Part shown: positions 1,741 through 15,824 of the stretch, in pieces | How positions within the stretch are numbered: the first letter of the stretch is position 1 | Layout: the number at the start of each line of letters is the position of its first letter | From: Gemmatimonadales bacterium | GTDB taxonomy: Bacteria > Gemmatimonadota > Gemmatimonadetes > Gemmatimonadales > GWC2-71-9 | Reading direction: 5' to 3' | Assembly (NCBI GenBank): GCA_035637235.1 | Contig: DASPXO010000025.1 | Span: forward strand, 1 to 16,144 | DNA length: 16,144 bases | Made by a program: the position numbers and the translations under genes | Notes under the pieces: model-generated | The model's database searches: none | Told to the model about the DNA's origin: nothing | What the model saw: only the letters and a program-made list of their open reading frames with translations

Positions 1741-3024
1741 ATGGACTTGTCTCCCGTCACCGTCGTCGCCCTCGCGGCCGTCGCGCTGGGCCTTGTGGGC
1801 GCGCTCGTCGGAATGGTCCGGTCGCTCATCGTGATCTGCATGCCGAACGAAATGGTGGTGGTCAGCGGCCGGCGTCGGGTCACGGAGGACGGGCGGAGCG
1901 TCGGGTACCGGGTGCTGCACGGCGGGCGCACGCTGCGGGTCCCGATCATCGAGAAGGTCTCGCGCATCGATCTCCGGACGATTCCGATCGAGGTGATGAT
2001 CAAGAACGCCTACTCGAAGGGCGGGATACCCCTGATCGTGCAGGGCATCGCCAACGTGAAGGTGTGCGCGCGCGAGCCGATCTCCTACAACGCGGTGGAG
2101 CGGCTGCTCGACAAACCGTTCGACGAGATCATGCAGATCGCGAAGGATACGCTCGAGGGCAACCTGCGCGGCGTGCTGGCGACGCTCACGCCCGAGGAAG
2201 TCAACGAGGACCGCCTCAAGTTCGCCCAGCGGCTGATCGAGGAGGCCGACGAGGACCTGAAGAAGCTGGGGCTCGAGCTCGACACGCTGAAGATCCAGAA
2301 CGTCACGGACGACGTGAAGTACCTCGACTCGATCGGGCGGACGCGCACCGCGGAGATCTTGAAGATCGCGCGCGTCGCCGAGGCGCAGCGCACCTCCGAG
2401 GCGGAGCAGACCGAAGCGTCGTCGCGCCAGGCGGCCCAGATCGCGAAGATCCAGGCGGACCTGAAGATCACGGAGGAGAACAACCGGCTCCGCGTCCGCA
2501 AAGCCGAGCTCGAAGCGGAGGCGCTGGCGCGGGAGAACGAGGCGCAGGTGGCCGGCGAGAAGGCGAAGGTCAAGGCGCAGCAGGATCTCCAGGCCGCGCG
2601 CATCGACCTCGAGGCCAAGCGCGTCGAGGCCGACGTCGTCGTGCCCGCCCGGGCCGACCGAGAGGCCTCGGAGCTGCGCGCCAAGGGCGCCGCGGCGTCG
2701 ATCCTCGAGAACGGCAACGCCAACCTCGCCGTGCTCGACCGCATGATCCAGCTCTACAGCAAGGCGGGGAACGAGGCCGAGCGGATTTTCATCCTGAACA
2801 TGCTGCCGGAGATCATCAAGGAACTGGCGGGCTCGGTGGAGCAGATCAAGATCGACAAGCTGGCGGTGATCGACTCGGGGAACGGCGCCGGCGTCGCTTC
2901 CGCGGCGGCGCAGTTTCCCCAGGCGATCATCAAGCTGACGGAGCAGATCGAGGGCGCGACCGGGATCAACATCCTGTCGCGGCTGCAGAAGCCGGCCGAG
3001 CAGCCGAAGCGTGCCGAGAAGTAG
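1741..3024 (+). CDS. Flotillin-like SPFH/band-7 protein (YqiK/FloT family)
   Basis: 427 aa. An N-terminal TM helix is followed by an SPFH core (VVSGRRRVTEDGRSVGYRVLHGGRTLRVPIIEKVSRIDLRTIPIEV...GGIPLIVQGIANVKV) and a long E/A/K/Q-rich coiled-coil (flotillin EA repeats). SD aagagg lies 5 nt before ATG 1741, which is 10 nt after the NfeD stop. Confidence 0.9.
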   Translation: MDLSPVTVVALAAVALGLVGALVGMVRSLIVICMPNEMVVVSGRRRVTEDGRSVGYRVLHGGRTLRVPIIEKVSRIDLRTIPIEVMIKNAYSKGGIPLIVQGIANVKVCAREPISYNAVERLLDKPFDEIMQIAKDTLEGNLRGVLATLTPEEVNEDRLKFAQRLIEEADEDLKKLGLELDTLKIQNVTDDVKYLDSIGRTRTAEILKIARVAEAQRTSEAEQTEASSRQAAQIAKIQADLKITEENNRLRVRKAELEAEALARENEAQVAGEKAKVKAQQDLQAARIDLEAKRVEADVVVPARADREASELRAKGAAASILENGNANLAVLDRMIQLYSKAGNEAERIFILNMLPEIIKELAGSVEQIKIDKLAVIDSGNGAGVASAAAQFPQAIIKLTEQIEGATGINILSRLQKPAEQPKRAEK

Positions 3025-3475
3025 TCTCGCTCTCCTCGCGTTCGCCGCCGCCTGCGGACCCACCGATCCCTGCCGCTCCCCCCCGATGCATCTCCGGAGC
3101 CGCTACGCGCGAGCATATGTCGGCCACTGGCGCGTGGCGCACGGGGACACGCTCACGCTCCCCGAGATGGGCGACCGGTTCAAGCTCAGCGACGTCGTGC
3201 TCGACAGCGCCCGGATCGCGGTGGGGCGAGCGTGTCACTTCAAGGGGCGGCTCGTGTTCCAGGTCCCGCGCGCCGAGACCCTCGCGGTGACGTGGTTCGG
3301 CCAACCCGAGCGGGCGCTCATCTTCGGCTGGCCGGCGGAGCTGGGGCCGTTCGCCGGGATCGAGGCGGTCCGCGTGGGCGATTCGCTCGCGGGTGCGATT
3401 CTGTTCGACGAGCGGTTGGGCGTGCGGGTGCCCCCCGGGGTCACGGCGCGCTTCGTCGCGGGCCGGGCACGGTGA
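3011..3475 (+). CDS. Hypothetical lipoprotein (154 aa)
   Basis: A GTG start at 3011 overlaps the flotillin stop (3022-3024) by 14 nt. The N-terminus SSLALLAFAAACGPTDP has lipobox AAAC. GC3 is high from about codon 30 onward. No recognisable domain. The start is uncertain; the next in-frame ATG (MHLRS...) would remove the signal peptide. Confidence 0.5.
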   Translation: MPRSSLALLAFAAACGPTDPCRSPPMHLRSRYARAYVGHWRVAHGDTLTLPEMGDRFKLSDVVLDSARIAVGRACHFKGRLVFQVPRAETLAVTWFGQPERALIFGWPAELGPFAGIEAVRVGDSLAGAILFDERLGVRVPPGVTARFVAGRAR

Positions 3476-3483
3476 AGTATCTT

Positions 3484-3499
3484 TGACCTCACCCCCTGA
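3484..3499 (+). repeat. Copy 2 of exact 16-nt motif TGACCTCACCCCCTGA, preceded by TTTGACC
   Basis: Same 16-mer as 1022-1037. Here CCTCA-ccccc-TGAGG forms a 5-bp hairpin whose 3' arm overlaps the SD gaggaga of the DinB_2 gene (ATG 3510). Confidence 0.6.
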
Positions 3500-3509
3500 G
3501 GAGAGCAAC

Positions 3510-4031
3510 ATGCCCTTCACCGCCGCCGAGCGCGCCGCCCTGATCGAGCGCTACGCCCACGGTCCCGCGCTCCTGAAGCGCGCTCTCGCCAGGGTCCCCG
3601 CCGAGGCCCTCCAATGGAAACCGGCTCCCGGCAAGTGGTCGGCCCACGAGATCGTCGTCCACTGCGCGGACTCCGAGACCAACGCCCACATGCGGCTGCG
3701 CTACCTGCTCGCCGAGCCGGACCCCATGATCGTGGGATACGACCAGGACCGCTGGGCCGCGGCGTTCGCCTACCACGGGCACCCGATCGAAGTCGCGCTC
3801 GCGACCGTCGAGGCCGTGCGGGCCAACACGGTGCCCCTGCTGAAGCGGATGACCGACCGGGACTGGGGCAAAGTCGGCCGGCACACGGAGTCCGGCCGCT
3901 ACGCCGTGGAAGACTGGCTCGCCATCTACGCCGAGCACCTCGAGAAGCACTCGCGCCAGATCGAGCGAAACCTCGCCGAGTGGAGCGACCGTCCCCCCCC
4001 TCCGCGACGCGGCGAGGGGGCCAGGGGGTGA
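3510..4031 (+). CDS. DinB/YfiT-like (DinB_2 superfamily) putative metal-dependent enzyme
   Basis: ATG 3510 is preceded by SD gaggaga and is in frame with ORF 3393..4031. Sequence MPFTAAERAALIERYAHGPALLKRALARVPAEALQWKPAPGKWSAHEIVVHCADSETNAHMRLRYLL...YAEHLEKHSRQIE carries the His triad pattern of DinB_2 proteins. The C-terminal tail is Pro/Arg/Gly-rich. Confidence 0.85.
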   Translation: MPFTAAERAALIERYAHGPALLKRALARVPAEALQWKPAPGKWSAHEIVVHCADSETNAHMRLRYLLAEPDPMIVGYDQDRWAAAFAYHGHPIEVALATVEAVRANTVPLLKRMTDRDWGKVGRHTESGRYAVEDWLAIYAEHLEKHSRQIERNLAEWSDRPPPPRRGEGARG

Positions 4032-4036
4032 GGCCG

Positions 4037-4432
4037 ATGAGGGGATTCCTGTTTCGCCTGCTCATCACCGCCCTCGGCCTGTGGGCCGCCGCCACCATCG
4101 TTCCCGGGGTCACGATCCGCGGCGTCGGGAACCTGATCGTCGCGGCGCTGCTGCTCGGGCTGGTGAACGCGGTCATCCGACCGGTCATCCTCATCCTGAC
4201 CCTTCCGTTGACGGTGCTCACGCTGGGGCTGTTCATCCTGGTCGTGAACGGGATTTCGCTCGCGCTCGTGGCGTGGCTGATGCCGGGGTTCACCATCGCC
4301 GGGCTGCCCCCGGCGATCCTCGGCTCGATCGTGGTCGGGCTGACCAGCTGGTTCGCTTCCGCGTTCGTCGGCGGCTCGGGCCGCATCGAGCGGATTCGCC
4401 ACATCGAGGTGAGCGGGCGCCGGCTCGATTGA
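4037..4432 (+). CDS. DUF360 / phage-holin-4_2-like small membrane protein (YvlD-like)
   Basis: ATG 4037 (MRGFLFRLLITALGLWAAATIVPGVTIRGVGNLIVAALLLGLVNAVIRPVILILTLPLTVLTLGLFILVVNGISLALVAWLMPGF...) gives four predicted TM helices, typical of DUF360. This is the later part of ORF 3614..4432. A G-rich SD (gggggtgagg) lies upstream. Confidence 0.8.
   Translation: MRGFLFRLLITALGLWAAATIVPGVTIRGVGNLIVAALLLGLVNAVIRPVILILTLPLTVLTLGLFILVVNGISLALVAWLMPGFTIAGLPPAILGSIVVGLTSWFASAFVGGSGRIERIRHIEVSGRRLD
4348..4432 (+). repeat. Direct-repeat copy A (3' end of the intact DUF360 gene), partner at 5968-6051
   Basis: See pseudogene entry 5968..6051. The two copies bracket a 1.5-kb segment carrying the DUF423 and GT87-like genes. 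Confidence 0.7.
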
Positions 4433-4800
4433 TGGACCGGCTCTTCGCGGGGCTTGGCGCCGCGTCGGCGTTGCTCGCGGTGGCCGCCGGCGCGTTCGGC
4501 GCGCACGCGCTGCGCGCCCGGACGCCCGCCGACCTCCTCGCGGTGTTCGAAACCGCAGCCCGCTACCAGATGTACCATGCGCTGGCGCTGCTCGCCGTTG
4601 CCTGGGCGGTGACGCGCTGGCCCGTGCCTGCTGTGCGCGCCGCCGGGTGGCTGTTCGTCGCCGGCACGGTGACCTTCTCCGGCTCGCTCTATCTGCTCGC
4701 GCTGACCGGCGTGCGCGCCTTCGGCGCCGCCACGCCCTTTGGCGGGCTCGCGTTCCTGGCAGGCTGGCTCGCGCTGGCGGTGGGCGTGTGGCGGGGCTGA
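4432..4800 (+). CDS. DUF423 family membrane protein (YgdD-like)
   Basis: ATG 4432 overlaps the DUF360 stop (tgATG). Sequence MDRLFAGLGAASALLAVAAGAFGAHALRA...YQMYHALALLAVAW...VTFSGSLYLLALTG...TPFGGLAFLAGWLALAVGVWRG matches the conserved GAFGAH, Y.xH.LA, FSGSLY.LAL and TP.GG..FLAGW blocks of DUF423. It lies in the frame of ORF 4081..4800. Confidence 0.85.
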   Translation: MDRLFAGLGAASALLAVAAGAFGAHALRARTPADLLAVFETAARYQMYHALALLAVAWAVTRWPVPAVRAAGWLFVAGTVTFSGSLYLLALTGVRAFGAATPFGGLAFLAGWLALAVGVWRG

Positions 4801-5933
4801 CCCCGCGGGAGCGGCGCATCCTCGTCGCGCTCGGGGGACTGTACGCCCTTGTCAATACGTTCATCGGCGTCCACTCCGGCGGCGATCTCGTGTTCCACCT
4901 GCGCCTGGCCGAGCGCCTGATGCAGGGTCTGCCGCTGTACGCGGACTTCGACACGGCGCGTGGCATGCCGTGGCCGCCGTTTGCGATATTCGCGTTGACC
5001 CCGTTTGCGCTCCTGGCTCGCCTCAGTTTGCCGGTCGCCAAGGGCTTGTGGGCGGTCGGCAACGTGGCGCTGTTCGGCTGGTGCGTGGTGCGCGCGTATT
5101 CCCGCGTCGGCCGCTGGCTCCCCGTCGTACTCGCCGTCGCCGCCGTGGCCCAGCCGCTCCAGAGCAACTTCCAGCACCTGAACATCAACATCGCGCTGCT
5201 GGGGCTGGTCGTGTTCGCCATGGACGATGTCGAGCGGGGGCGCGACATGCGGGCGACACTGTGGATTGGCGTCGCCACCGCGCTCAAGGGCTACCCCGGA
5301 GCGATCTTTCTCTATTTCCTCGCGCGCGGCCGCTGGCGGCCGCTGGCCGCGGGCCTCGTCGCCGCGGTCGGGCTCAGTTTCCTGGTGATGCTTCCCGCCG
5401 GTCTCGGGGGAGCCGCGATCGTCCCCGACTACGTACACCTCGCTCTGACCGCCCAGAGCACGAAGGCGCTCGCGGGCCAATCGATCGGCGGGCTCGTCGC
5501 CCGTTTGGGGGGAGGCGTTGCGACCGCAGTGGCGCTCGACCTCATCGCCTCCGGTGTGGTGGCCGCGGCGCTGTGGCGCCGCCGGCGGCTCCAGTCGGGT
5601 GCGGCGGCGTCCGACCTCGGGATGGCCGCGGTGCTCGCCGTGCTGCTCGCGCCGCTCGACCGGCTCCACTACTACGTTCTCGGATTCCCGGCGTGGACCG
5701 ACACGTTTGGCCGCCCCGCACCGGCGCGCGGGCGCACGGCGTGGTTCACCGCGCTCGCCGTCGGGGCATTCCTCACGTCGGGGATGCTGAGCCATATCCA
5801 CGGCCCTCTTCCCGCGGTCTTGTGGATCATTCGCAAGAATACCTACAACCTCGGCGCGCTGATCCTGCTCGGCATTCTCGTGATCCAGCGCGCCCGCGTC
5901 CCCGAACCTCCTCCGGCACCGCAACCTCCATGA
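4788..5933 (+). CDS. Polytopic membrane protein, DUF2029 / glycosyltransferase-87-like (function tentative)
   Basis: Frame of ORF 4647..5933. A GTG at 4788 overlaps the DUF423 stop by 13 nt. The 5' part of the ORF-track ORF is the DUF423 gene read out of frame, so the true start must be near 4788 (alternatives: CTG 4794, or ATG giving MQGLPLYADF about 4920). At least 8 hydrophobic segments, high GC3, Pro-rich C-terminal tail PEPPPAPQPP. The GT87/DUF2029 assignment is by general resemblance only. Confidence 0.6.
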   Translation: MAGLTPRERRILVALGGLYALVNTFIGVHSGGDLVFHLRLAERLMQGLPLYADFDTARGMPWPPFAIFALTPFALLARLSLPVAKGLWAVGNVALFGWCVVRAYSRVGRWLPVVLAVAAVAQPLQSNFQHLNINIALLGLVVFAMDDVERGRDMRATLWIGVATALKGYPGAIFLYFLARGRWRPLAAGLVAAVGLSFLVMLPAGLGGAAIVPDYVHLALTAQSTKALAGQSIGGLVARLGGGVATAVALDLIASGVVAAALWRRRRLQSGAAASDLGMAAVLAVLLAPLDRLHYYVLGFPAWTDTFGRPAPARGRTAWFTALAVGAFLTSGMLSHIHGPLPAVLWIIRKNTYNLGALILLGILVIQRARVPEPPPAPQPP

Positions 5934-6294: not shown

Positions 6295-9200
6295 ATGACG
6301 CCGATCCGCTCCATCCGCTCCGTTGTTCGCGTGCTGTCAACCATCGCCGCCCTCTACGTCGTCGAGAGCTGTCGCGACTACCAAGGGCCCGGGTCGCCGA
6401 CCGGGGCGCCGGATCGGTCCGCGCCCGGCTTCGAAGTCTCCCCAGCGCCCCTCCCGGTGACGCTCGTGGGCGCGGGGAACATCGCTAGCTGCAAGAACAC
6501 CAACGACGACGCCACGGCTGCCCTTTTGGACGGGATCCCGGGGACCGTGTTCGCGCTCGGGGACAACGCCTACGACAACGGCACCCTCACCCAGTACAAC
6601 ACCTGCTACAACCCGAACTGGGGACGGCACAAGACCCGCACCCAGCCGGCGGTGGGCGACCGCGACTACAAGACCACCAACGCGGGCGGCTACTTCGGCT
6701 ACTTCGGCAGCGCCGCGGGCGATCCGACAAAGGGCTACTACAGCTACGAACTCGGCGCCTGGCACATCGTCGTGCTCAACAGCAACAGCTCCAAGGTCCC
6801 GACCGCCGCGGGCTCGGCCCAGGAGCAGTGGCTGCGCGCGGACCTCGCCGCCCATCCCGGGCGCTGCACCCTGGCCTACTGGCACCACCCCCGGTTCAGC
6901 TCCAAGGACAGCCCCAACAGCGCCATCACCCCGCTGTGGAACGCGCTCTATGCCGCCGGCGTGGACGTGGTGGTGAACGCCCACTACGCCTTCTACGAGC
7001 GGTTCGCGCCCCAGACCCCGGCCGGCGCCGCCGATGCGGCGTTTGGCATCCGGGAGTTCATCGCCGGTACGGGGGGCGGGGAAACCGGGTCGTTCGGCAC
7101 GGTCCGGGCGAACAGCGAGGTCCGGAGCAGCGGCACGCCGGGCGTGCTCAAGCTCACGCTCGACGCCGACGGCTACGCCTGGGAGTTCGTGCCGATCGCC
7201 GGCAAGACGTTCCGCGACTCGGGGACCGGCGGCTGCCATGGCGCGCCCCCGCTGTCCGTGAACGCCGGGGCCGATGTCACGGCCAGCCCGGGGGACACGG
7301 TGAAGCTCGCCGTCACGCTCACCGATCCCGCGAACGCCCCCCCGTGGACATACACGATCCTGTGGGGCGACGGCGGCTCGAGCAACGGAACCGCCCAATC
7401 CTCGCCGATCATCGCCTCGCACGTGTACTCGGCGCTGGGCCTCGACAGCGTACGCGTCGCCGTCACGAGCAACGTGGGAGGGTCCGGCTCGGACTCACTC
7501 GCCGTGCAGGTGGTCGTGCGGCCCACGTCGGTCGTCCTGGTAGGCGCCGGCGACATCGCCGACTGCACCAGGAACAGCGACTCTCTCACCGCGAACCTGC
7601 TCGACGGCATCCCGGGCACCGTGTTCACGGCGGGCGACAACGCTTACCCCGACGCCTCGAGCAGCGACTACACCAACTGCTACCACCCGACTTGGGGCCG
7701 GCACAAAGCCAGGACCCGACCGGTCCCGGGCAACCACGAGTACAGCACCTCCGGCGCCACACCGTATTACAGCTACTTCGGCGCGGCGGCCGGCGATCCC
7801 ACGAAAGGCTATTACAGCTACGACCTCGGCGATTGGCACATCATCGCCCTGAACTCGAACATCGCGTACGGTGCGGGGTCCGCCCAGGAGCAATGGCTGC
7901 GTGCCGACCTGGCGGCAAGCACGAAGCGCTGCACGCTCGCCTACCTGCATCATCCCCTCTTCAGCTCCGGCACTCTGGCCGCGGCCGGGACACAGGTCCT
8001 GTGGCAGGACCTGTACGTCGCCGGCGCCGAGATCGTGGTCGCCGGGCACGAGCACAACTACCAGCGCTTCGCTCCCGAGACCCCGACCGGCGTGGCCGAT
8101 CCGGTCTACGGTATTCGCGAATTCATCGCGGGGATGGGCGGCGCGGGCCATTTCAGCGTGGGAACAGCCCTGGCGAACACCGAGGTGCAGGAGGACCAGA
8201 CCTATGGGGTCCTCAAGCTGACGTTGTACGCCGCCCGCTACGACTGGGCGTTCGTCCCCGTCGCCGGCAAGACCTTCACGGACTCCGGCAACGAGACGTG
8301 CCATGATGCCCCGGGAGCCGTGAATCACGCGCCCATCGCCGCTGCCGGCGGACCCTACGCCGGCGTGGAGGGCGGCGCGGTCAGCTTCATCGGGAGCGGC
8401 TCCTCGGATCCCGACGGTGACGCGCTGACCTACGCCTGGAGCTTCGGCGACGGCGGCACCGGTAGCGGCGTCAACCCCAGTCACAGCTACGCCGACAACG
8501 GCAGCTACACCGTGACGCTGGCCGTCACCGACGCGCGCGGTGCGTCCAGCTCGGCGGCCACCATCACTGCGACGGTCGCCAATGCGGCGCCCTCGGTCAA
8601 CGCGGGAGCCAATCAGGCCATCGGTGTGGGCGCGAGCTACACGCTCGGCGCCGGCTTCAGCGATCCCGGCACCAACGACGCTCCCTGGGCGTACTCGATC
8701 GACTGGGGTGACGGCTCGTCGCCGACGACCGGGAGCACGACCAGTCAGTCGAGCGCCATCACGGCCACGCACCCATACCCTGCGGCGGGCAGCGACACCG
8801 TGCGCGTGACGGTCACCGACAAGGATGGCGCAACGGGCTCGGGACAGCTCACCGTGACGGTGAGCGACGCGAATCAGCCGCCCACCGCCACGGCCGGCGG
8901 TCCGTATGCCGGCACGGAGGGGACGGCGGTCAGCTTCGACGGTAGCGGCTCGTCGGACCCCGATGGGGACGCTTTGACCTACGCCTGGAGCTTCGGCGAC
9001 GGCGGCACGGGCAGCGGCGTGAAACCCAGCCACAGCTACGCCGACAACGGCGCCTATTCCGTGACGCTCACCGTCACCGACGCCCGCGGGGCGTCCGGCT
9101 CGGCGGCCACGACCACCGCCACGATCGGCAACGTGGCGCCCTCGGTCAACGCGGGCGTAAATCAGACCGTCACCGCGGGGACGAGCGTCACGCTCGATGC

Positions 9201-10212
9201 CGCCTTCAGCGATCCCGGCGCGAACGACGCGCCCTGGTCGTATTCGATCGACTGGGGCGACGGCTCGTCGCCGACGACCGGGGGCACGTCCACGCAGTCC
9301 AGCGCCATCACGGCCACGCATCCATACTCTGCGGCGGGCAGCAACATCGTGCGCGTCACGGTCACGGACAAGGATGGCGCAACCGGCTCGGGACAGCTCA
9401 CCGTGACCGTCACGCAGCCGGGGACGAGCGTCACGCTCGTCGGGGCCGGCGAGGTGACACGGTGCGACAACACGAAGGACGAGGCGACCGCGCTGCTGCT
9501 GGACGACATCCCTGGGACCGTCTTCACCACGGGCGACAACATCCGCGCCAGCGGGTCGCTGTCCGATTTCACCTCGTGCTACGATCCCTCGTGGGGCCGG
9601 CACAAGGCGAGGACGCGGCCGTCGCTCGGCGCGTATGAGTATCAGACCGCCGGCGCTGCGGGGTATTTCGACTACTTCGCGCTCGCCGGCGGAGAGCGGG
9701 ACAAGGGTTACTACACCTACGAGCTCGGCGACTGGCACATCGTCGTGCTGAACAGCAACATCGACATGACCGTCGGCTCCCCGCAGGAGCAATGGCTCCG
9801 CACCGACTTGGCGGCGAGCACGAAGCGCTGCACCCTGGCGTACTGGGCTCACCCCCGATTCAGCTCCTACTCGACGGCCGTGCGCTCGGGCGTCAAGCCG
9901 CTGTGGGATGACCTCTACGCCGCGGGCGCCGAGGTGGTGCTCAACGGGCACTACCGGCTGTACGAGCGGTTCGCCCCGCAGACCCCGGATGAAGTGGCCG
10001 ACCCGCAGAACGGCATCCGTCAATTCACCGTCGGAACGGGCGGGCATGGAGTCGATGCCTTCGGCACCACCCCCCGGCCGAACAGCGAAGTGCGGATCAG
10101 CGGCACGTACGGTGTGCTGCAGCTCACGCTGGGCGACGGCGTCTACTCCTGGCAGTTCGTCCCGGTGGCGGGCCAGACGGCGACCGACTCGGGAAGCGGG
10201 ACTTGCCACTAA
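6295..10212 (+). CDS. Secreted 1305-aa multidomain protein with three purple-acid-phosphatase-like metallophosphoesterase (MPE) domains, of which only the middle one is intact, interleaved with PKD and PKD-like domains
   Basis: ORF-track ORF with ATG 6295, N-terminal signal peptide (MTPIRSIRSVVRVLSTIAALYVVESC) and high GC3 throughout. MPE domain 2 (about nt 7528-8310) carries GDIAD, GDNAY, GNHEY, LHHP and GHEHNYQRF, i.e. the PAP motifs GDxxY / GNHE / xxH / GHxH. Domain 1 (about 6457-7255) reads GNIAS / GDNAY / GDRDY / WHHP / NAHYAFYERF. Domain 3 (about 9430-10209) reads GEVTR / GDNIR / GAYEY / WAHP / GHYRLYERF. Each domain ends F-VP-AGxT--DSG---CH. Between them are PKD domains (VSFxGSGSSDPDGDALTYAWSFGDGGTGSG...YTVTLxVTDARGAS) and PKD-like WGDG-containing domains. 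Confidence 0.9.
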   Translation: MTPIRSIRSVVRVLSTIAALYVVESCRDYQGPGSPTGAPDRSAPGFEVSPAPLPVTLVGAGNIASCKNTNDDATAALLDGIPGTVFALGDNAYDNGTLTQYNTCYNPNWGRHKTRTQPAVGDRDYKTTNAGGYFGYFGSAAGDPTKGYYSYELGAWHIVVLNSNSSKVPTAAGSAQEQWLRADLAAHPGRCTLAYWHHPRFSSKDSPNSAITPLWNALYAAGVDVVVNAHYAFYERFAPQTPAGAADAAFGIREFIAGTGGGETGSFGTVRANSEVRSSGTPGVLKLTLDADGYAWEFVPIAGKTFRDSGTGGCHGAPPLSVNAGADVTASPGDTVKLAVTLTDPANAPPWTYTILWGDGGSSNGTAQSSPIIASHVYSALGLDSVRVAVTSNVGGSGSDSLAVQVVVRPTSVVLVGAGDIADCTRNSDSLTANLLDGIPGTVFTAGDNAYPDASSSDYTNCYHPTWGRHKARTRPVPGNHEYSTSGATPYYSYFGAAAGDPTKGYYSYDLGDWHIIALNSNIAYGAGSAQEQWLRADLAASTKRCTLAYLHHPLFSSGTLAAAGTQVLWQDLYVAGAEIVVAGHEHNYQRFAPETPTGVADPVYGIREFIAGMGGAGHFSVGTALANTEVQEDQTYGVLKLTLYAARYDWAFVPVAGKTFTDSGNETCHDAPGAVNHAPIAAAGGPYAGVEGGAVSFIGSGSSDPDGDALTYAWSFGDGGTGSGVNPSHSYADNGSYTVTLAVTDARGASSSAATITATVANAAPSVNAGANQAIGVGASYTLGAGFSDPGTNDAPWAYSIDWGDGSSPTTGSTTSQSSAITATHPYPAAGSDTVRVTVTDKDGATGSGQLTVTVSDANQPPTATAGGPYAGTEGTAVSFDGSGSSDPDGDALTYAWSFGDGGTGSGVKPSHSYADNGAYSVTLTVTDARGASGSAATTTATIGNVAPSVNAGVNQTVTAGTSVTLDAAFSDPGANDAPWSYSIDWGDGSSPTTGGTSTQSSAITATHPYSAAGSNIVRVTVTDKDGATGSGQLTVTVTQPGTSVTLVGAGEVTRCDNTKDEATALLLDDIPGTVFTTGDNIRASGSLSDFTSCYDPSWGRHKARTRPSLGAYEYQTAGAAGYFDYFALAGGERDKGYYTYELGDWHIVVLNSNIDMTVGSPQEQWLRTDLAASTKRCTLAYWAHPRFSSYSTAVRSGVKPLWDDLYAAGAEVVLNGHYRLYERFAPQTPDEVADPQNGIRQFTVGTGGHGVDAFGTTPRPNSEVRISGTYGVLQLTLGDGVYSWQFVPVAGQTATDSGSGTCH
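8345..9420 (+). repeat. Intragenic tandem duplication, 2 x about 549 nt (183 codons), each unit encoding one PKD plus one PKD-like domain
   Basis: Unit A (from about 8345, gccggcggaccctacgccggcgtggag...) and unit B (from about 8894, gccggcggtccgtatgccggcacggag...) align along their full length at an estimated 85-90% nucleotide identity. The protein units are GGPYAGVEGGAVSFIGSGSSDPDGDALTYAWSFGDGGTGSGVNPSHSYADNGSYTVTL... and GGPYAGTEGTAVSFDGSGSSDPDGDALTYAWSFGDGGTGSGVKPSHSYADNGAYSVTL... Confidence 0.85.
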
Positions 10213-10361: not shown

Positions 10362-11474
10362 GTGACCACGCGCGTCCAGGACCTCGAAACCCCAGCCCTG
10401 CTGCTCCACCTCGACGTCGTGCGGCGCAACGTGAAGCGCATGGCGGAGCGGGCGAAGCAGCTCGGCGTGAAGCTTCGGCCGCACGCCAAGACCCACAAGT
10501 GCGTCGAGCTGGGGCGGCTGCAGCTCGAGCACGGCGCGCATGGGCTCACCGTGGCGACGACCGTGGAAGCGGAGGTGTTCGCGCGCGCCGGGGTCCGGGA
10601 CATCACCTGGGCGTTCCCCGTGGATCCGGGTCACATCGCGCGCATGCGCCGCCTCGCCGACGCGACCGGCGCGCTCGTGCGGCTCGTGGTGGACGATCTG
10701 GGCACGGCCAAGGCGCTCGCCGGATCGGGGCTCCACGTCTGGCTCAAAGTGGACTGCGGCTATCACCGCGCCGGGGTCGACCCGACGTCGCCCTACGCCC
10801 TCGAGGTCGGGCGCGAGCTGGGGCGCGAGCGCGGACTCACGTTCGACGGCATCTTGAGCCACTCGGGCCACGCGTACCGCACGAAGACCAAGCAGGAAGC
10901 GGCGCAGGTCGCCGAGCAGGAACGCAGCGTCATGGTGGGCTTCGCCGAGCGAGTACGGAAAGAGGGCGTCCCGCTGCGCGAGATCAGCGTCGGCTCGACG
11001 CCCGCGATGGCGGCGGTGGAGCGCCTCGACGGCGTCACCGAGGCGCGCCCCGGGAACTACGTCTTCTACGACCGGACGATGGTGCTGATCGGCTGCTGCG
11101 CGCCGGAGGACGTCGGCGTGACCGTGCTCGCGTCGGTCGTGTCGCACCAGCCGGGCGCGGCGCACTTCATCGTGGACGCGGGGGCGCTCGCGCTGTCCAA
11201 GGACACGGGGCCGGGGCACGTCGGCCCGCCGGCGATGGGCGCGGTGCGGGGACACCCGGAGCTGACGATCGCGACGCTGTCGCAGGAGCACGGTCTCATC
11301 CGGGCCGAGTCGCCCGCGGCCATCGAGGGTCGGTTCACGGTGGGCGAGAAGGTCGAGATCGTTCCCAACCACTCGTGCCTGACGGTCGCGCATTTCGACG
11401 AGTACCACGTCGTGAGCGGGATGGACGACGGGGGACACGTCGTGGACCGCTGGAGGGTGGAGCGCGGACGATGA
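10362..11474 (+). CDS. PLP-dependent DSD1-family enzyme (D-serine dehydratase-like / D-threonine-aldolase-like; alanine-racemase-type fold)
   Basis: GTG start at 10362 (ORF track). The block LRPHAKTHKC contains the family PLP-lysine signature (PHxKTHKC). A C-terminal beta domain is present. 370 aa, high GC3. Confidence 0.88.
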   Translation: MTTRVQDLETPALLLHLDVVRRNVKRMAERAKQLGVKLRPHAKTHKCVELGRLQLEHGAHGLTVATTVEAEVFARAGVRDITWAFPVDPGHIARMRRLADATGALVRLVVDDLGTAKALAGSGLHVWLKVDCGYHRAGVDPTSPYALEVGRELGRERGLTFDGILSHSGHAYRTKTKQEAAQVAEQERSVMVGFAERVRKEGVPLREISVGSTPAMAAVERLDGVTEARPGNYVFYDRTMVLIGCCAPEDVGVTVLASVVSHQPGAAHFIVDAGALALSKDTGPGHVGPPAMGAVRGHPELTIATLSQEHGLIRAESPAAIEGRFTVGEKVEIVPNHSCLTVAHFDEYHVVSGMDDGGHVVDRWRVERGR

Positions 11475-11893
11475 GCGCACCGCTGCCATCGTTCCCACCG
11501 CCGCCTCCGGCGCTCGTGGCGCTGGCCTGGGCGGTCGTCGGCCCGCCGCTCCTCGTCCTTGCCGCGACCCGGGTGCGGCGGGGACAGATCCGGGTGCACA
11601 TGACCCTGATGCTGGTGAGCGTCGTCGTCGAGCTCGCGGTCGTCGTCGGGTTCTCTTTTCTGATGACGCCGAGCCCGCGTCGCGCGGCGCTCACGGCGCT
11701 GCCCTTCTTCAAGATTCACCTCGCGTTCGCGATCGCGACGCTCGCGGGGATCGCCTGGCAGCTCGTGAGCCGGACGGTGCCCAGGCTGCGCCCGCTGCAC
11801 CGGCACACCGGTCCTTACGTGGTGCTCGTGTGGTGCCTCGCGCTGTTGACGGGGATCTACAACTACGTCTTCCTCTACGTCATGAGCGGCTGA
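11471..11893 (+). CDS. DUF420 family membrane protein (CtaM/YozB-like)
   Basis: ATG 11471 overlaps the upstream stop (ATGA). The 140-aa protein has 4 TM helices and the conserved DUF420 blocks IRVHMTLMLVSV, FFKIHLAFAIATLAGIAW and LHRHTGPYVVLVWCLALLTGIYNYVFLYVM. It lies in the frame of ORF 10499..11893. Confidence 0.82.
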   Translation: MSAPLPSFPPPPPALVALAWAVVGPPLLVLAATRVRRGQIRVHMTLMLVSVVVELAVVVGFSFLMTPSPRRAALTALPFFKIHLAFAIATLAGIAWQLVSRTVPRLRPLHRHTGPYVVLVWCLALLTGIYNYVFLYVMSG

Positions 11894-13281: not shown

Positions 13282-14184
13282 CTAATCGCTGCGCCGGCGG
13301 ACCCGCCCCACTACCACCGTCACGTTGTCCTCGCCGCCGCGCTCCAGCGCCAGCCGGACGAGATCGCGACACACCTGCTCGGCGGACTCGAGGTGCAGGA
13401 GGCGCTCGCGGATCTCGTCCTCGGTCACGTGCCGGGTGAGGCCGTCGGTGCAGAGCAGGTTCACGTCCTCCCGCTGGCGATCGGCGACGAGTGTCAAGGG
13501 AGTCGCCTCGCGCCCGCCGAGCGCACTGGACAGCACGTTGCGCAGGGGCGACCGCTTCGCTTCCTCCCGTGTCAGGGCCCCCGCGCGCACCAGATCTTCG
13601 GCCACCGTTTGGTCGCGCGTCATGCGCTCGAGCCGGCCCTCGCGCAGGCGGAACCAGCTCGAGTCGCCGAGGTGCACCAGGTACGCCCGCGGCCAGAGAA
13701 AGAAGACCATCGTGAGCGTCGTGGCGCTGCCCCGCCCCCGGTATTCCCGTTCCCCCTCGTCGCGCAGCGTATCGTGGATCTTCAACACCGCCCGCTCGAG
13801 CTCGCCGAGGAACGCGTTGTCGTGCTCCGGGTCGAGGCGGCGGTACAGGTCGGTGAGGTGGGTGACGTAGTGCGCGATCGTCCGCACCGCGACGCCGCTC
13901 GCGGCCTGGCCGTCGGGCTGCCCGCCCACGCCGTCCGCGACGAGCAGGACGTAGCCGCGTGAATCGGTGACGAGCGTCGTGAGGTCGTCGGGGGGGATGC
14001 TCGATTGGTGGACGCGGAGGAGCTTGTGGAGGCTAGCGATCAGGAACTGGTCCTGGTTCTCCTTGCGGACGCGGCCGCGGTCGGTGAGACCGAAGACGTC
14101 GATGTCCGACGGGGCCGGTTTGGGCCCGGCCTCCGAAGCGGCCTGGTCGTCCCACGGGCGGGCAGATCCGATTGGGGCCGTCAT
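13282..14184 (-). CDS. PP2C-family (PPM) serine/threonine protein phosphatase
   Basis: Conserved PPM motifs FGLTDRGRVRKENQDQF, LLVADGVGGQ, GSATTLT, HLGDSS, DQT, NVLSSALGG, LLCTDGLT and GGEDNVTVVV are all present. The ATG at 14184 is preceded by gaggcg. The ORF-track start at 14196 is a GTG behind a CCUCCC stretch and is less likely. Confidence 0.9.
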   Translation of the reverse strand: MTAPIGSARPWDDQAASEAGPKPAPSDIDVFGLTDRGRVRKENQDQFLIASLHKLLRVHQSSIPPDDLTTLVTDSRGYVLLVADGVGGQPDGQAASGVAVRTIAHYVTHLTDLYRRLDPEHDNAFLGELERAVLKIHDTLRDEGEREYRGRGSATTLTMVFFLWPRAYLVHLGDSSWFRLREGRLERMTRDQTVAEDLVRAGALTREEAKRSPLRNVLSSALGGREATPLTLVADRQREDVNLLCTDGLTRHVTEDEIRERLLHLESAEQVCRDLVRLALERGGEDNVTVVVGRVRRRSD

Positions 14185-14266
14185 GCGACGCCTCACGCAG
14201 GGAGGATGGCAACAAGATGAGTGACCGGTCGGTTTTGTGCCAGAGGACGAAGGCGCGAAACACCGT

Positions 14267-15268
14267 TCAGTTCTTGGCGAGGAATCTCAGCACGGTTTCG
14301 TCGTAGAACCGTGGAGACGCGGCGTGACTGTCGTAGCCTGCGCCCGGCACGGTGACGAGCTCCTCCGTGAGCAGACAGCGCTCGAGCTCCTCGGTGATCA
14401 CGTGGAACATCCGCGGGCTGCGCTCGCCGGTGAGGAGCAACACCGGACTCCGGATGCTCGCCACGTCCTTGCAGGACAGCGGGGGGAGGTACGCGGCAGG
14501 GTCGGCCAGCAGCTCGAGCCGCAGCTCGAACGCCAGCCGGAGCACCCCCCGGCGCGAAGCCTCCGGGATGCGGTCGAAGCGGCCCGGGGTGCCGCTCACC
14601 CCGTCGAGGAAGCGGCGCAGCCCGCCCACCGAGTCCCCGCGCGCGAACGCCGCGCGTGCCGGGGTGAGGACGGTCGCGTCGAACGCACGGCGGATGGAGT
14701 CGCCCTCCGGAGTTCGTGCGAGCCAGGGAAGGATTGGCGGATCTTCGAGCACCAGCGTGCGCACCAGCTCCGGACGCCGCAGGGCGAGCAGCAGCGCCGC
14801 ATACGCCCCGTAGGAGGACCCGACGATGTGCGCGCGAGAGATTCCGAGGCGCTCGAGGAGCGCGGCCAGGTCGTCCGCATGGAGCGAGAGCGCATAGCTC
14901 TGTCCGTCGCGCTGCGCCGGGTTGGGCGGATGGTACCGGCGGCTGTACGCGATCACCCGGTACTGGGAGGCGAACGCGTCGAGCTGCGTCCGCCAGTCGT
15001 CCAGGGTGCCGAGGCTGCCGTGAACGAACACCACCGGCAGGCCGCTCCCCTTCTCCACGTAATGGAGCTCCGTCCCGTTGGCGCGCACGACGCGCGGCGG
15101 CAGCGCGGCGGCAGCCCCCCCGGGGGCGGGGGCCGGGGCGGGCGCGGCACCCGGTTGCCCTTCCGGAGGCGACACCGCGCGGTGCCGGCCGCAGCTCGTC
15201 GCGACCGCGCAGGCCGTGATGAGGCCAGAGGAGAAGCGAATACCGGGTCGGCGGCTAGCGGTGACCAT
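14267..15268 (-). CDS. Alpha/beta-hydrolase-fold protein, probable lipoprotein
   Basis: HG oxyanion motif VVFVHGSLG and nucleophile elbow IVGSSYGAY (GxSxG). The N-terminus MVTASRRPGIRFSSGLITAC has lipobox ITAC, followed by a Pro/Ala-rich linker PPEGQPGAAPAPAPAPGGAAAALPP. ATG at 15268; the ORF-track alternative is GTG 15292. High GC3. Confidence 0.85.
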   Translation of the reverse strand: MVTASRRPGIRFSSGLITACAVATSCGRHRAVSPPEGQPGAAPAPAPAPGGAAAALPPRVVRANGTELHYVEKGSGLPVVFVHGSLGTLDDWRTQLDAFASQYRVIAYSRRYHPPNPAQRDGQSYALSLHADDLAALLERLGISRAHIVGSSYGAYAALLLALRRPELVRTLVLEDPPILPWLARTPEGDSIRRAFDATVLTPARAAFARGDSVGGLRRFLDGVSGTPGRFDRIPEASRRGVLRLAFELRLELLADPAAYLPPLSCKDVASIRSPVLLLTGERSPRMFHVITEELERCLLTEELVTVPGAGYDSHAASPRFYDETVLRFLAKN

Positions 15269-15824
15269 CTGCTTGACGAGGCCAGTTCGCACCGCGCCAG
15301 GTGCGCGAGTGGAGCCGTCCCGGCCAGAGCGGCGGTGCCAGCCGAGCGACGAGCATCGACACAGCCGTGAACAGCGCTACGACGGGAGCCGCACTCACCG
15401 CCCCGCGAACCCGCTCCCCCACGCCCCCGGACCCTGTGGCGAACTCCTCGGCAGCGAACGCCGCTGCGACCAGGAGTCCCAACAGGCCGCTCCCGGCGGA
15501 CGCGCCCAGCCACGAGCGCTCGAGCCCCGAGCCGGCGAGCACGCGCACATACAGCCCGAGCGCGAGCGCCTCTGCCGGGACCACGGTGCCCAGCACCAAC
15601 CCGCCGGCGTACAAGACAATCGGCGAGCGGTGCTGCAGCTGCCACAGGGCCCCCAACAGCGCGACGCCGGCGGCGAATGAGCCCGCGAGCCAGAGGAACA
15701 GGCGTCCCCAGAGCATGTGCCACGGCACCTCAGGACCGCGACCGAAGCGGCCGCGAGCCACGAACAGCAGTCCGGCGGCGCAGCCGAGCACGTAGATCAG
15801 GAACCAGGGGCTTACTCCGAGCAC
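15255..15824 (-). CDS. Hypothetical polytopic membrane protein (189 aa)
   Basis: GC3 is about 85-90% over the ORF. Hydrophobic segments include WFLIYVLGCAAGLLFVA, LFLWLAGSFAAGVALLGALW, IVLYAGGLVLGTVVPAEALALGLYV and LLGLLVAAAFAA. The start is uncertain (GTG 15824 or an internal ATG). The 3' end overlaps the hydrolase start by about 14 nt. Confidence 0.5.
   Translation of the reverse strand: MLGVSPWFLIYVLGCAAGLLFVARGRFGRGPEVPWHMLWGRLFLWLAGSFAAGVALLGALWQLQHRSPIVLYAGGLVLGTVVPAEALALGLYVRVLAGSGLERSWLGASAGSGLLGLLVAAAFAAEEFATGSGGVGERVRGAVSAAPVVALFTAVSMLVARLAPPLWPGRLHSRTWRGANWPRQADGHR

Follow-up and report, generated by a model that had tools for sequence, protein, structure and literature searches.

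Why would a bacterial protein carry three copies of one phosphatase domain when only the middle copy has a complete active site? The question is raised by a gene at positions 6295..10212 (forward strand) of contig DASPXO010000025.1 from a Gemmatimonadales bacterium (assembly GCA_035637235.1), the 16,144-nucleotide stretch of ~70% GC DNA that we analysed and refer to as the window. An earlier note made from the sequence had described a giant secreted protein with three tandem metallophosphoesterase (MPE) domains resembling purple acid phosphatases (PAPs), interleaved with PKD-type domains, and had proposed that an enzyme recruited pseudo-enzyme copies of itself. We give roughly even odds to a reading in which the central domain would be an enzyme and the two flanking domains selected, non-catalytic accessory modules of an envelope lipoprotein, with the PKD domains serving as spacers.

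The gene is an intact open reading frame (ORF) of 1305 amino acids coding for a multi-MPE/PKD protein that we predict to be a lipoprotein. NCBI protein P0121, titled 'MAG TPA: PKD domain-containing protein [Gemmatimonadales bacterium]', matches it with 100% identity, and metagenome contig WNFU01004891.1 (locus L058) holds an identical sequence. A profile built from the three MPE domains locates each of them at full profile length; from the N- to the C-terminus these are D1 (amino acids 52-319; 6448..7251), D2 (amino acids 409-674; 7519..8316) and D3 (amino acids 1042-1305; 9418..10209), all on the forward strand, as are the other parts of the gene given below. Their pairwise identity is 60-61% over the full length, far above chance, so that the homology claimed by the earlier note stands; the shared xVxLVGAG start and FVPxAGxTxxDSGxxxCH finish that it described are likewise present in all three, and the protein ends exactly at C1304-H1305 of D3. 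Five PKD-type domains had also been correctly counted, with PKD_4 (272 bits) and PKD (134 bits; PF18911/PF00801) each matching five stretches above the gathering score. One of these domains (amino acids 320-408; 7252..7518) forms the conserved spacer between D1 and D2, and the other four (8320..9417), delineated by Pfam and repeat analysis, make up a stalk between D2 and D3 that varies in length among homologues.

Against the Metallophos family (PF00149), the outcome departs from the three matches that had been expected. The whole protein scores 38.9 bits in a single stretch located in D2, and D2 alone scores 32.9 bits (cutoff 21.5); scanned singly, D1 and D3 yield zero Pfam matches, even at E<=10, and their membership in the PF00149 superfamily is assigned solely because they are 60% identical to D2. 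Because variant MPE domains escape Pfam in this way, automatic annotation calls multi-domain members of the family only 'PKD domain-containing protein'.

Plant PAPs are the top PDB sequence matches of D2 (E=2e-7). In PAP structures, Fe(III) is held at site M1 by D135, Y167 and H325 together with the bridging D164, and a divalent metal (Zn-type) is held at site M2 by N201, H286 and H323 together with D164. In the alignment to kidney-bean PAP, D2 GDNAY corresponds to GDLSY (D164 and Y167), GNHE to GNHE (N201 and H202), LHHP to MHSP (H286), and GHEH to GHVH (H323 and H325); six D2 ligands are thereby aligned directly to 1KBP, and D420 (in GAGD) is equated with D135 by motif order alone. We scored eight positions per domain, the seven ligands and the catalytic His, using D2 numbering for homologues. 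D2 has the complete set of ligands (D420, D448, Y451, N480, H552, H585 and H587) and the catalytic H481, and by its ligand set it is a predicted PAP-type domain. The plant-type N-terminal fibronectin-like PAP domain is absent among the Pfam matches of the protein; since mammalian PAPs also lack this N-terminal domain, its absence is compatible with PAP-type chemistry.

The corresponding positions in D1 are N62, D90, Y93, D122, H197, H230 and A232, with R123 in place of the catalytic His; those in D3 are E1053, D1081, R1084, A1113, A1185, H1219 and R1221, with Y1114 in place of the catalytic His. D1 thus deviates from PAP at three of the seven ligands and D3 at five, and both are without the catalytic His. 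In D1, site M1 has lost its His (A232) and its Asp is now Asn (N62), and site M2 is complete if Asp can stand for Asn. In D3, four of the seven ligand positions are unable to ligate, two of them in site M2. The alignment does not bear out the alternative that all three domains are complete, and the motif strings originally listed are correct (GDRDY and NAHYAFYERF in D1; GDNIR, GAYEY and GHYRLYERF in D3). That list nonetheless overlooked two things: motif I is GAGD in D2, GAGN in D1 and GAGE in D3, and motif IV of D3 reads WAHP, with its His replaced by A1185, an Ala that occurs at this position once among 155 non-redundant variant domains. Similarly, the description of the middle domain as the only intact one holds in that D2 alone has the complete set, but D1 is only partly degenerate, because it retains GDNAY and WHHP.

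The predicted structures agree with the assignment of D2. Its AlphaFold2 model has a pLDDT (predicted local distance difference test) of 96 and a predicted template modelling (pTM) score of 0.93, and a Foldseek search of the PDB returned 66 matches at E<=1e-3, with MPE-fold proteins at the head of the list. The top matches are plant and mammalian PAPs, with template modelling (TM) scores of 0.73-0.79 (about 0.78 for the highest-ranked) and 14-21% identity; GAP50 (3tgh) ranks 32, and PhoD, GpdQ, Rv0805 and Vps29, the last at a TM of about 0.4-0.46, lie lower. D1 was modelled as part of a D1-PKD-D2 segment (amino acids 45-680; mean pLDDT 90.5, pTM 0.51), within which it has a pLDDT of about 85-95 and the same order of helices and strands as D2. 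A rigid D1-D2 pseudo-dimer is unsupported, given this pTM despite the confident single domains.

The N-terminus of the protein suggests that it is a predicted lipoprotein. A putative signal peptide (6295..6372), with a basic n-region, a hydrophobic core and a lipobox-like VVES-C26 end, reads MTPIRSIRSVVRVLSTIAALYVVES-C26, in which the Glu at -2 is atypical for a lipobox; it is followed by a Pro/Ser/Gly-rich linker (amino acids 27-51; 6373..6447), recognised by its composition and by the low pLDDT with which the model begins. A Cys lies at the equivalent place in 92 of 96 full-length homologues, mostly in the context ...[ST][TS]C. The earlier description of the protein as secreted is right in that it is probably exported, but lipid anchoring through the N-terminal Cys is likelier than free secretion. 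We note that the putative lipobox of the family (as in P0123-P0180) is unusual: its pattern is ...[LVI][STA][TS]-C, after which come R/G/H/Q and then D/E, and position -1 has Thr or Ser in place of Gly or Ala.

Each MPE domain also has four Cys that are conserved throughout the Gemmatimonadales family. Distant relatives lack C1 and C2 together and retain C3 and C4, and this joint loss suggests C1-C2 and C3-C4 disulfides; the N-terminal Cys and the four Cys per domain fit a predicted extracytoplasmic location. The C-terminal CH dipeptide, previously singled out as unusual for MPEs, is indeed present in each domain (C314-H315 in D1, C669-H670 in D2 and C1304-H1305 in D3) but is a trait of the whole subfamily: His is found there in 250 of 265 canonical domains of the Gemmatimonadales group, single-domain relatives included, and the last MPE domains of homologues terminate exactly at CH.

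How common is this arrangement? Queried with the full protein, a word index returned 2965 matches at E<=1e-30, the 120 best of which are 973-1870 amino acids long, and an exhaustive profile search gave 4842 matches at E<=1e-30 among 1.84 billion 50%-identity cluster representatives, with two or more MPE stretches in at least 36 of the representatives listed. Writing A for a canonical and x for a variant domain, the 121 best full-length homologues have the orders xAx (87), xxAx (13), xAAx (9), xAxx (4) and xxx (3). The variant-canonical-variant order also occurs in GTDB metagenome-assembled genomes (MAGs), almost all from Gemmatimonadales, and in soil metagenome contigs. The architecture, common in metagenomes, is shared by hundreds of database proteins, and the same order of domain types is repeated in clearly more than a hundred distinct ones, drawn from numerous samples and MAGs. 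The earlier note had not recognised it as described, and we found no paper on it in the literature searched; it is, however, no one-off, as the predominance of xAx among the homologues makes plain. PAP-type MPE chemistry and fold are already known, and there is nothing unusual in a fusion to PKD domains; the novelty lies in a widespread, clade-specific architecture in which a canonical domain lies between conserved variant copies lacking site M1.

The closest full-length homologue, P0137 (70% identity), adjoins secY, adk and map. Canonical relatives with a single MPE domain abound in Gemmatimonadota and reach Actinomycetota and Saccharibacteria at 35-50% identity. Multi-MPE genes often form tandem arrays of paralogues (L001:3304-15188, L008:2324-11052 and L002:1204-12211); in L001, three adjacent genes code for proteins with two, three and four MPE domains.

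The PKD spacers follow a pattern of their own. The D1-D2 spacer is a single PKD domain (80-110 amino acids) in 80 of the 87 xAx homologues, and the lengths of the D2-D3 spacer cluster at about 180, 365, 545 and 735 amino acids. In the window, the D2-D3 PKD domains are a tandem duplication of a two-PKD unit (amino acids 676-858 and 859-1041), evident in the DNA as a 549-nucleotide period with 83% identity over 300 nucleotides. Among homologues, the D2-D3 spacer is a multiple of the two-PKD unit, with the D1-D2 spacer fixed.

Neighbour-joining places the canonical middle domains together and sets the variant domains apart from them, in an 'HY[AG]' class with D1 (a domain of the pattern 'N..DY..[DE]xD..HH..HY[AG]'), an 'HM[RQ]' class, and a heterogeneous group to which the strongly degenerate, 'HYR'-class D3 belongs. 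Ratios of nonsynonymous to synonymous substitutions (dN/dS, Nei-Gojobori) against the eight nearest homologues are 0.22-0.46 for D1, 0.22-0.32 for D2 and 0.18-0.24 for D3, and are meaningful only for comparison between the domains because the GC content probably makes the estimates of dS too low. Mean column entropy is likewise alike for canonical (1.28) and variant (1.29) domains. As judged from these data, D1 and D3 are predicted pseudo-enzymes, with catalytic residues lost and the fold and purifying selection kept, and their variant classes turn up in hundreds of domains.

Variant domains are not uniformly degenerate. Among 395 non-redundant examples, site M1 is intact in just nine, and site M2 is ligand-competent (D448, H552 and H585, with N, D, E or H at 480) in 300. 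In the D1 class (n=82), conservation reaches 99-100% at D448, H552 and H585, and 73% of the domains have Asp or Glu at 480, while the catalytic-His position ranks at the 94th percentile for variability. Domains of the D1 type probably continue to bind one metal, and with M2 ligands that are almost invariant they are not simply 'dead'. The proposal that pseudo-enzyme copies were recruited therefore survives in part: D1 and D3 are not decaying, having dN/dS ratios like that of D2 and belonging to old, recurrent variant clades, but D1 is degenerate only in part. In the D3 class (n=37), positions 451, 480, 481, 552 and 553 are in the top quarter of variability, and the mean pairwise identity of the domain is 0.67. 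The pocket appears to have been abandoned in D3-type domains, with D3 of the window an extreme case, and the old active site is unlikely to be the functional surface of D3. We considered, and rejected as a general rule, Arg as a metal mimic at 451, 481 or 587, where Arg or Lys occupies one of the three positions in just 202 of the 395 variant domains.

In many homologues the two flanking domains resemble each other (mean identity 68%, up to 100%) more than they resemble the centre (56-58%), which is consistent with paired flanking modules; those of the window are 61% identical and belong to different classes. In P0176, P0131, P0194, P0180 and others, the two flanks share 83-100% identity, against only about 55-60% with the centre, which suggests recent duplication or gene conversion between flanks in such homologues.

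A further variant class has the pattern D/N..DF..NHE..QQH or QMH, in which the Tyr ligand is replaced by Phe and the first His of GHxH by Gln. It is found in L117:2896-6807, in the third domains of P0125, P0142 and P0122, and in the second domains of P0149-type proteins, sometimes in proteins without any fully canonical domain, and may represent an active enzyme whose metal site differs.

Taken together, we suggest the following model. The protein would be exported by the Sec pathway and lipid-anchored in the envelope of a soil Gemmatimonadales bacterium, where D2, with its complete binuclear PAP-type site, most likely cleaves phosphate esters outside the cytoplasm; candidate substrates are organic phosphate in soil, and phosphorylated cell-surface glycans and their lipid-linked intermediates. 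D1 and D3 would be ancient paralogous copies that have lost site M1 (the equivalent of kidney-bean D135/Y167/H325) and the catalytic His, D1 keeping the M2 ligands and probably binding one metal, and D3 having lost most of its ligands. Efficient hydrolysis would have been lost in both, with selection keeping them as accessory modules whose most likely task is to hold or orient, on either side of D2, a substrate that is phosphorylated, polymeric or attached to a surface. The PKD domains would act as spacers: a single one would join D1 to D2 at a fixed length, and a stalk that can lengthen by PKD pairs would separate D2 from D3. A substrate- or surface-binding role for the flanks is plausible in that it fits their symmetric placement and the conserved half-site of D1.

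Several observations weigh against this model. D1 keeps a plausible single-metal site, and because its replacements (Asp for N480 and Asn for D420) are still able to ligate, residual or altered catalysis may remain there. The variability of the former pocket positions in the D3 class argues against a conserved ligand-binding pocket in those domains. The pTM of the D1-PKD-D2 model offers no fixed arrangement that could explain cooperation between domains. Proteins made of variant domains throughout exist (for example, the xxx protein of L117), so a canonical partner in the same polypeptide is not an absolute requirement for variant domains. Lastly, the gene neighbours in the window are unrelated housekeeping and membrane genes that give no functional clue.

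Among the alternatives, the one that survives best, and that we nevertheless find doubtful, is that the flanks are purely structural, serving as a scaffold, spacer, anchor or protein-protein module and not recognising phosphate esters at all. The fast evolution of D3-type pocket positions in a domain that is conserved overall would suit such a role, and there is a precedent among the structural neighbours of D2 in GAP50, which has a PAP-like fold with catalytic residues mostly not conserved, has no detected phosphatase activity, and acts as a membrane anchor (PMC2172186); Vps29 is another such neighbour. However, a pure scaffold would have no need of the three almost invariant pocket ligands of D1-type domains, the AlphaFold2 model gives no rigid packing of D1 against D2, and spacers are already supplied by the PKD domains.

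It is unlikely, in our estimation, that the protein is instead a multi-enzyme, in which D1 and perhaps D3 are hydrolases of other specificity with a re-tooled site (mononuclear, or using other ligands), giving two or three activities. The retention of M2 ligands in most variant domains and their near-invariance in the D1 class point in this direction, as do the many replacements by residues that can also ligate a metal (N to D/E/H, H to E), the retention of the catalytic His in the large N..NH..HMR/Q variant class, and the existence of proteins made solely of variant domains. Yet D1 of the window has Arg for the catalytic His and Ala for the H325 equivalent, D3 is without four ligands including two from M2, few positions vary as much as that of the catalytic His in either the D1 or the D3 class, and M1 hardly ever survives in variant domains; in MPEs generally, substitutions of these ligands are known to reduce activity by orders of magnitude. 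The last possibility, that D1 and D3 are neutrally decaying duplication leftovers or an assembly artefact, would account for the degenerate ligands and the rare motif-IV Ala of D3 but has next to no chance of being correct, being effectively refuted by dN/dS ratios (0.18-0.46) like those of D2 and by recurrence of the same order of domain types in so many distinct proteins, with the ORF intact and the three domains, at only 60% identity, not collapsed repeats.

The neighbourhood of the gene in the window adds no functional clue to the model of an enzyme with accessory flanks. Upstream, on the forward strand, lie genes for an SPFH/Band 7 protein (1741-3024), a DinB_2 protein (3393-4031), a holin_4_2-family membrane protein (ORF 3614-4432) and a DUF423 protein (ORF 4081-4800), the last two with Pfam matches in their C-terminal parts, and a GT87 glycosyltransferase (4647-5933) that ends 362 nucleotides upstream and is the sole envelope-related neighbour; these coordinates are those of mechanically called, overlapping ORFs, and true starts may differ. 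Downstream are an alanine-racemase-N/D-serine-dehydratase-like protein (10362-11474, forward), a DUF420 membrane protein (in the C-terminal part of ORF 10499-11893), a PP2C phosphatase (13282-14196, reverse) and an alpha/beta hydrolase (14267-15292, reverse). Phosphate-regulon and transport genes are absent among the window neighbours, and the gene is flanked by neither a sigma-70-like promoter nor a convincing terminator.

Many paralogues are differently placed. About a third of the multi-MPE loci with enough flanking sequence lie in a conserved, co-directional Wzx/Wzy-type polysaccharide cluster that runs from Bac_transf through one to three multi-MPE genes, a gene for an NTP_transf_5-like protein (~505 amino acids) and one for an AAA_33 protein (~227 amino acids), followed by a protein of ~520 amino acids, Wzy_C, an asparagine-synthase (AsnB)-like protein and glycosyltransferases. 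Examples are L008:47-16189, L141:6376-18864, L142:3666-17257, L139:4273-18485 and L001:2253-17501, with L090, L117 and others. Cluster markers were detected with home-made hidden Markov models in the fetched homologue loci, and at least one is present in 27 fetched loci that carry an MPE gene; among multi-MPE loci whose flank extends far enough on the side in question, Bac_transf sits close upstream in 11 of 38 and the NTP_transf_5-like gene close downstream in 12 of 28. L117, which belongs to the WNFU record set, as does the source contig of the window sequence, is among the marker loci, and its first domain is 80% identical to D1. The window itself carries none of the markers.

We also put forward a speculative proposal that we think improbable as a whole: the variant domains would be a new class of the PAP fold, M2-only, single-metal modules that recognise phosphate esters or pyrophosphates without efficient hydrolysis, and multi-MPE lipoproteins would be a periplasmic or surface component of Gemmatimonadales Wzx/Wzy-type pathways, with the gene in the window a dispersed paralogue. 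As an example, such proteins might trim or set free phosphate-linked glycans or undecaprenyl-pyrophosphate-linked polymers, the flanks holding the polymer as the central domain cuts it.

Gemmatimonadota are abundant in soils and poorly characterised, and the link of many paralogues to polysaccharide clusters raises a possible new step in envelope glycan biogenesis or phosphorus recycling. If the flanks do bind substrate or surface, this would be a bacterial extracytoplasmic enzyme using inactivated copies of its own fold as accessory domains, which bears on how pseudo-enzymes evolve. The graded natural variants, from those with M1 lost and M2 kept to those fully dead, also form a useful natural system in which the dismantling or re-purposing of a binuclear metallo-hydrolase site can be studied.

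Among known systems, D2 is closest to the PAPs of kidney bean (1KBP/4DHL), sweet potato (1XZW), and pig, rat and human (1UTE/1QFC/1WAR), to which it is likened by sequence and model and with which it shares five motifs, the seven ligands and the His of GNHE. It differs from them in being bacterial and compact (~265 amino acids), with 14-21% identity and no plant-type N-terminal domain; in its four family-specific Cys, its C-terminal CH and its apparent lipid anchor; and in its fusion to PKD domains and two degenerate copies of itself. UshA/CpdB-type nucleotidases are extracytoplasmic or cell-wall-bound MPE enzymes, some of which, such as Bacillus subtilis YfkN with its two modules, have more than one MPE domain per polypeptide, as here. 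Their MPE domains, however, are of the DxH (non-PAP) type, are all catalytic, and are each accompanied by a 5'-nucleotidase C-terminal domain, which is not among the Pfam matches of the protein described here. Vps29, the retromer scaffold, is a distant structural neighbour of D2 that uses an MPE fold for protein interactions; it is much smaller, cytoplasmic, eukaryotic and not PAP-type. GAP50 of Apicomplexa (3TGH) provides the precedent for a PAP-type pseudo-enzyme kept for a non-catalytic role, but it is a stand-alone eukaryotic glideosome anchor, whereas here the degenerate domains sit beside an intact copy in one polypeptide and D1 keeps a half-site. The receptor-type protein tyrosine phosphatases, with a tandem of an active D1 and an inactive or regulatory D2, follow the same logic, in which a phosphatase domain is duplicated and one copy is catalytic and the other degenerate but conserved. 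Those enzymes have an unrelated fold and a Cys-based chemistry, are cytoplasmic and comprise two domains, in contrast to the variant-active-variant order of the Gemmatimonadales proteins.

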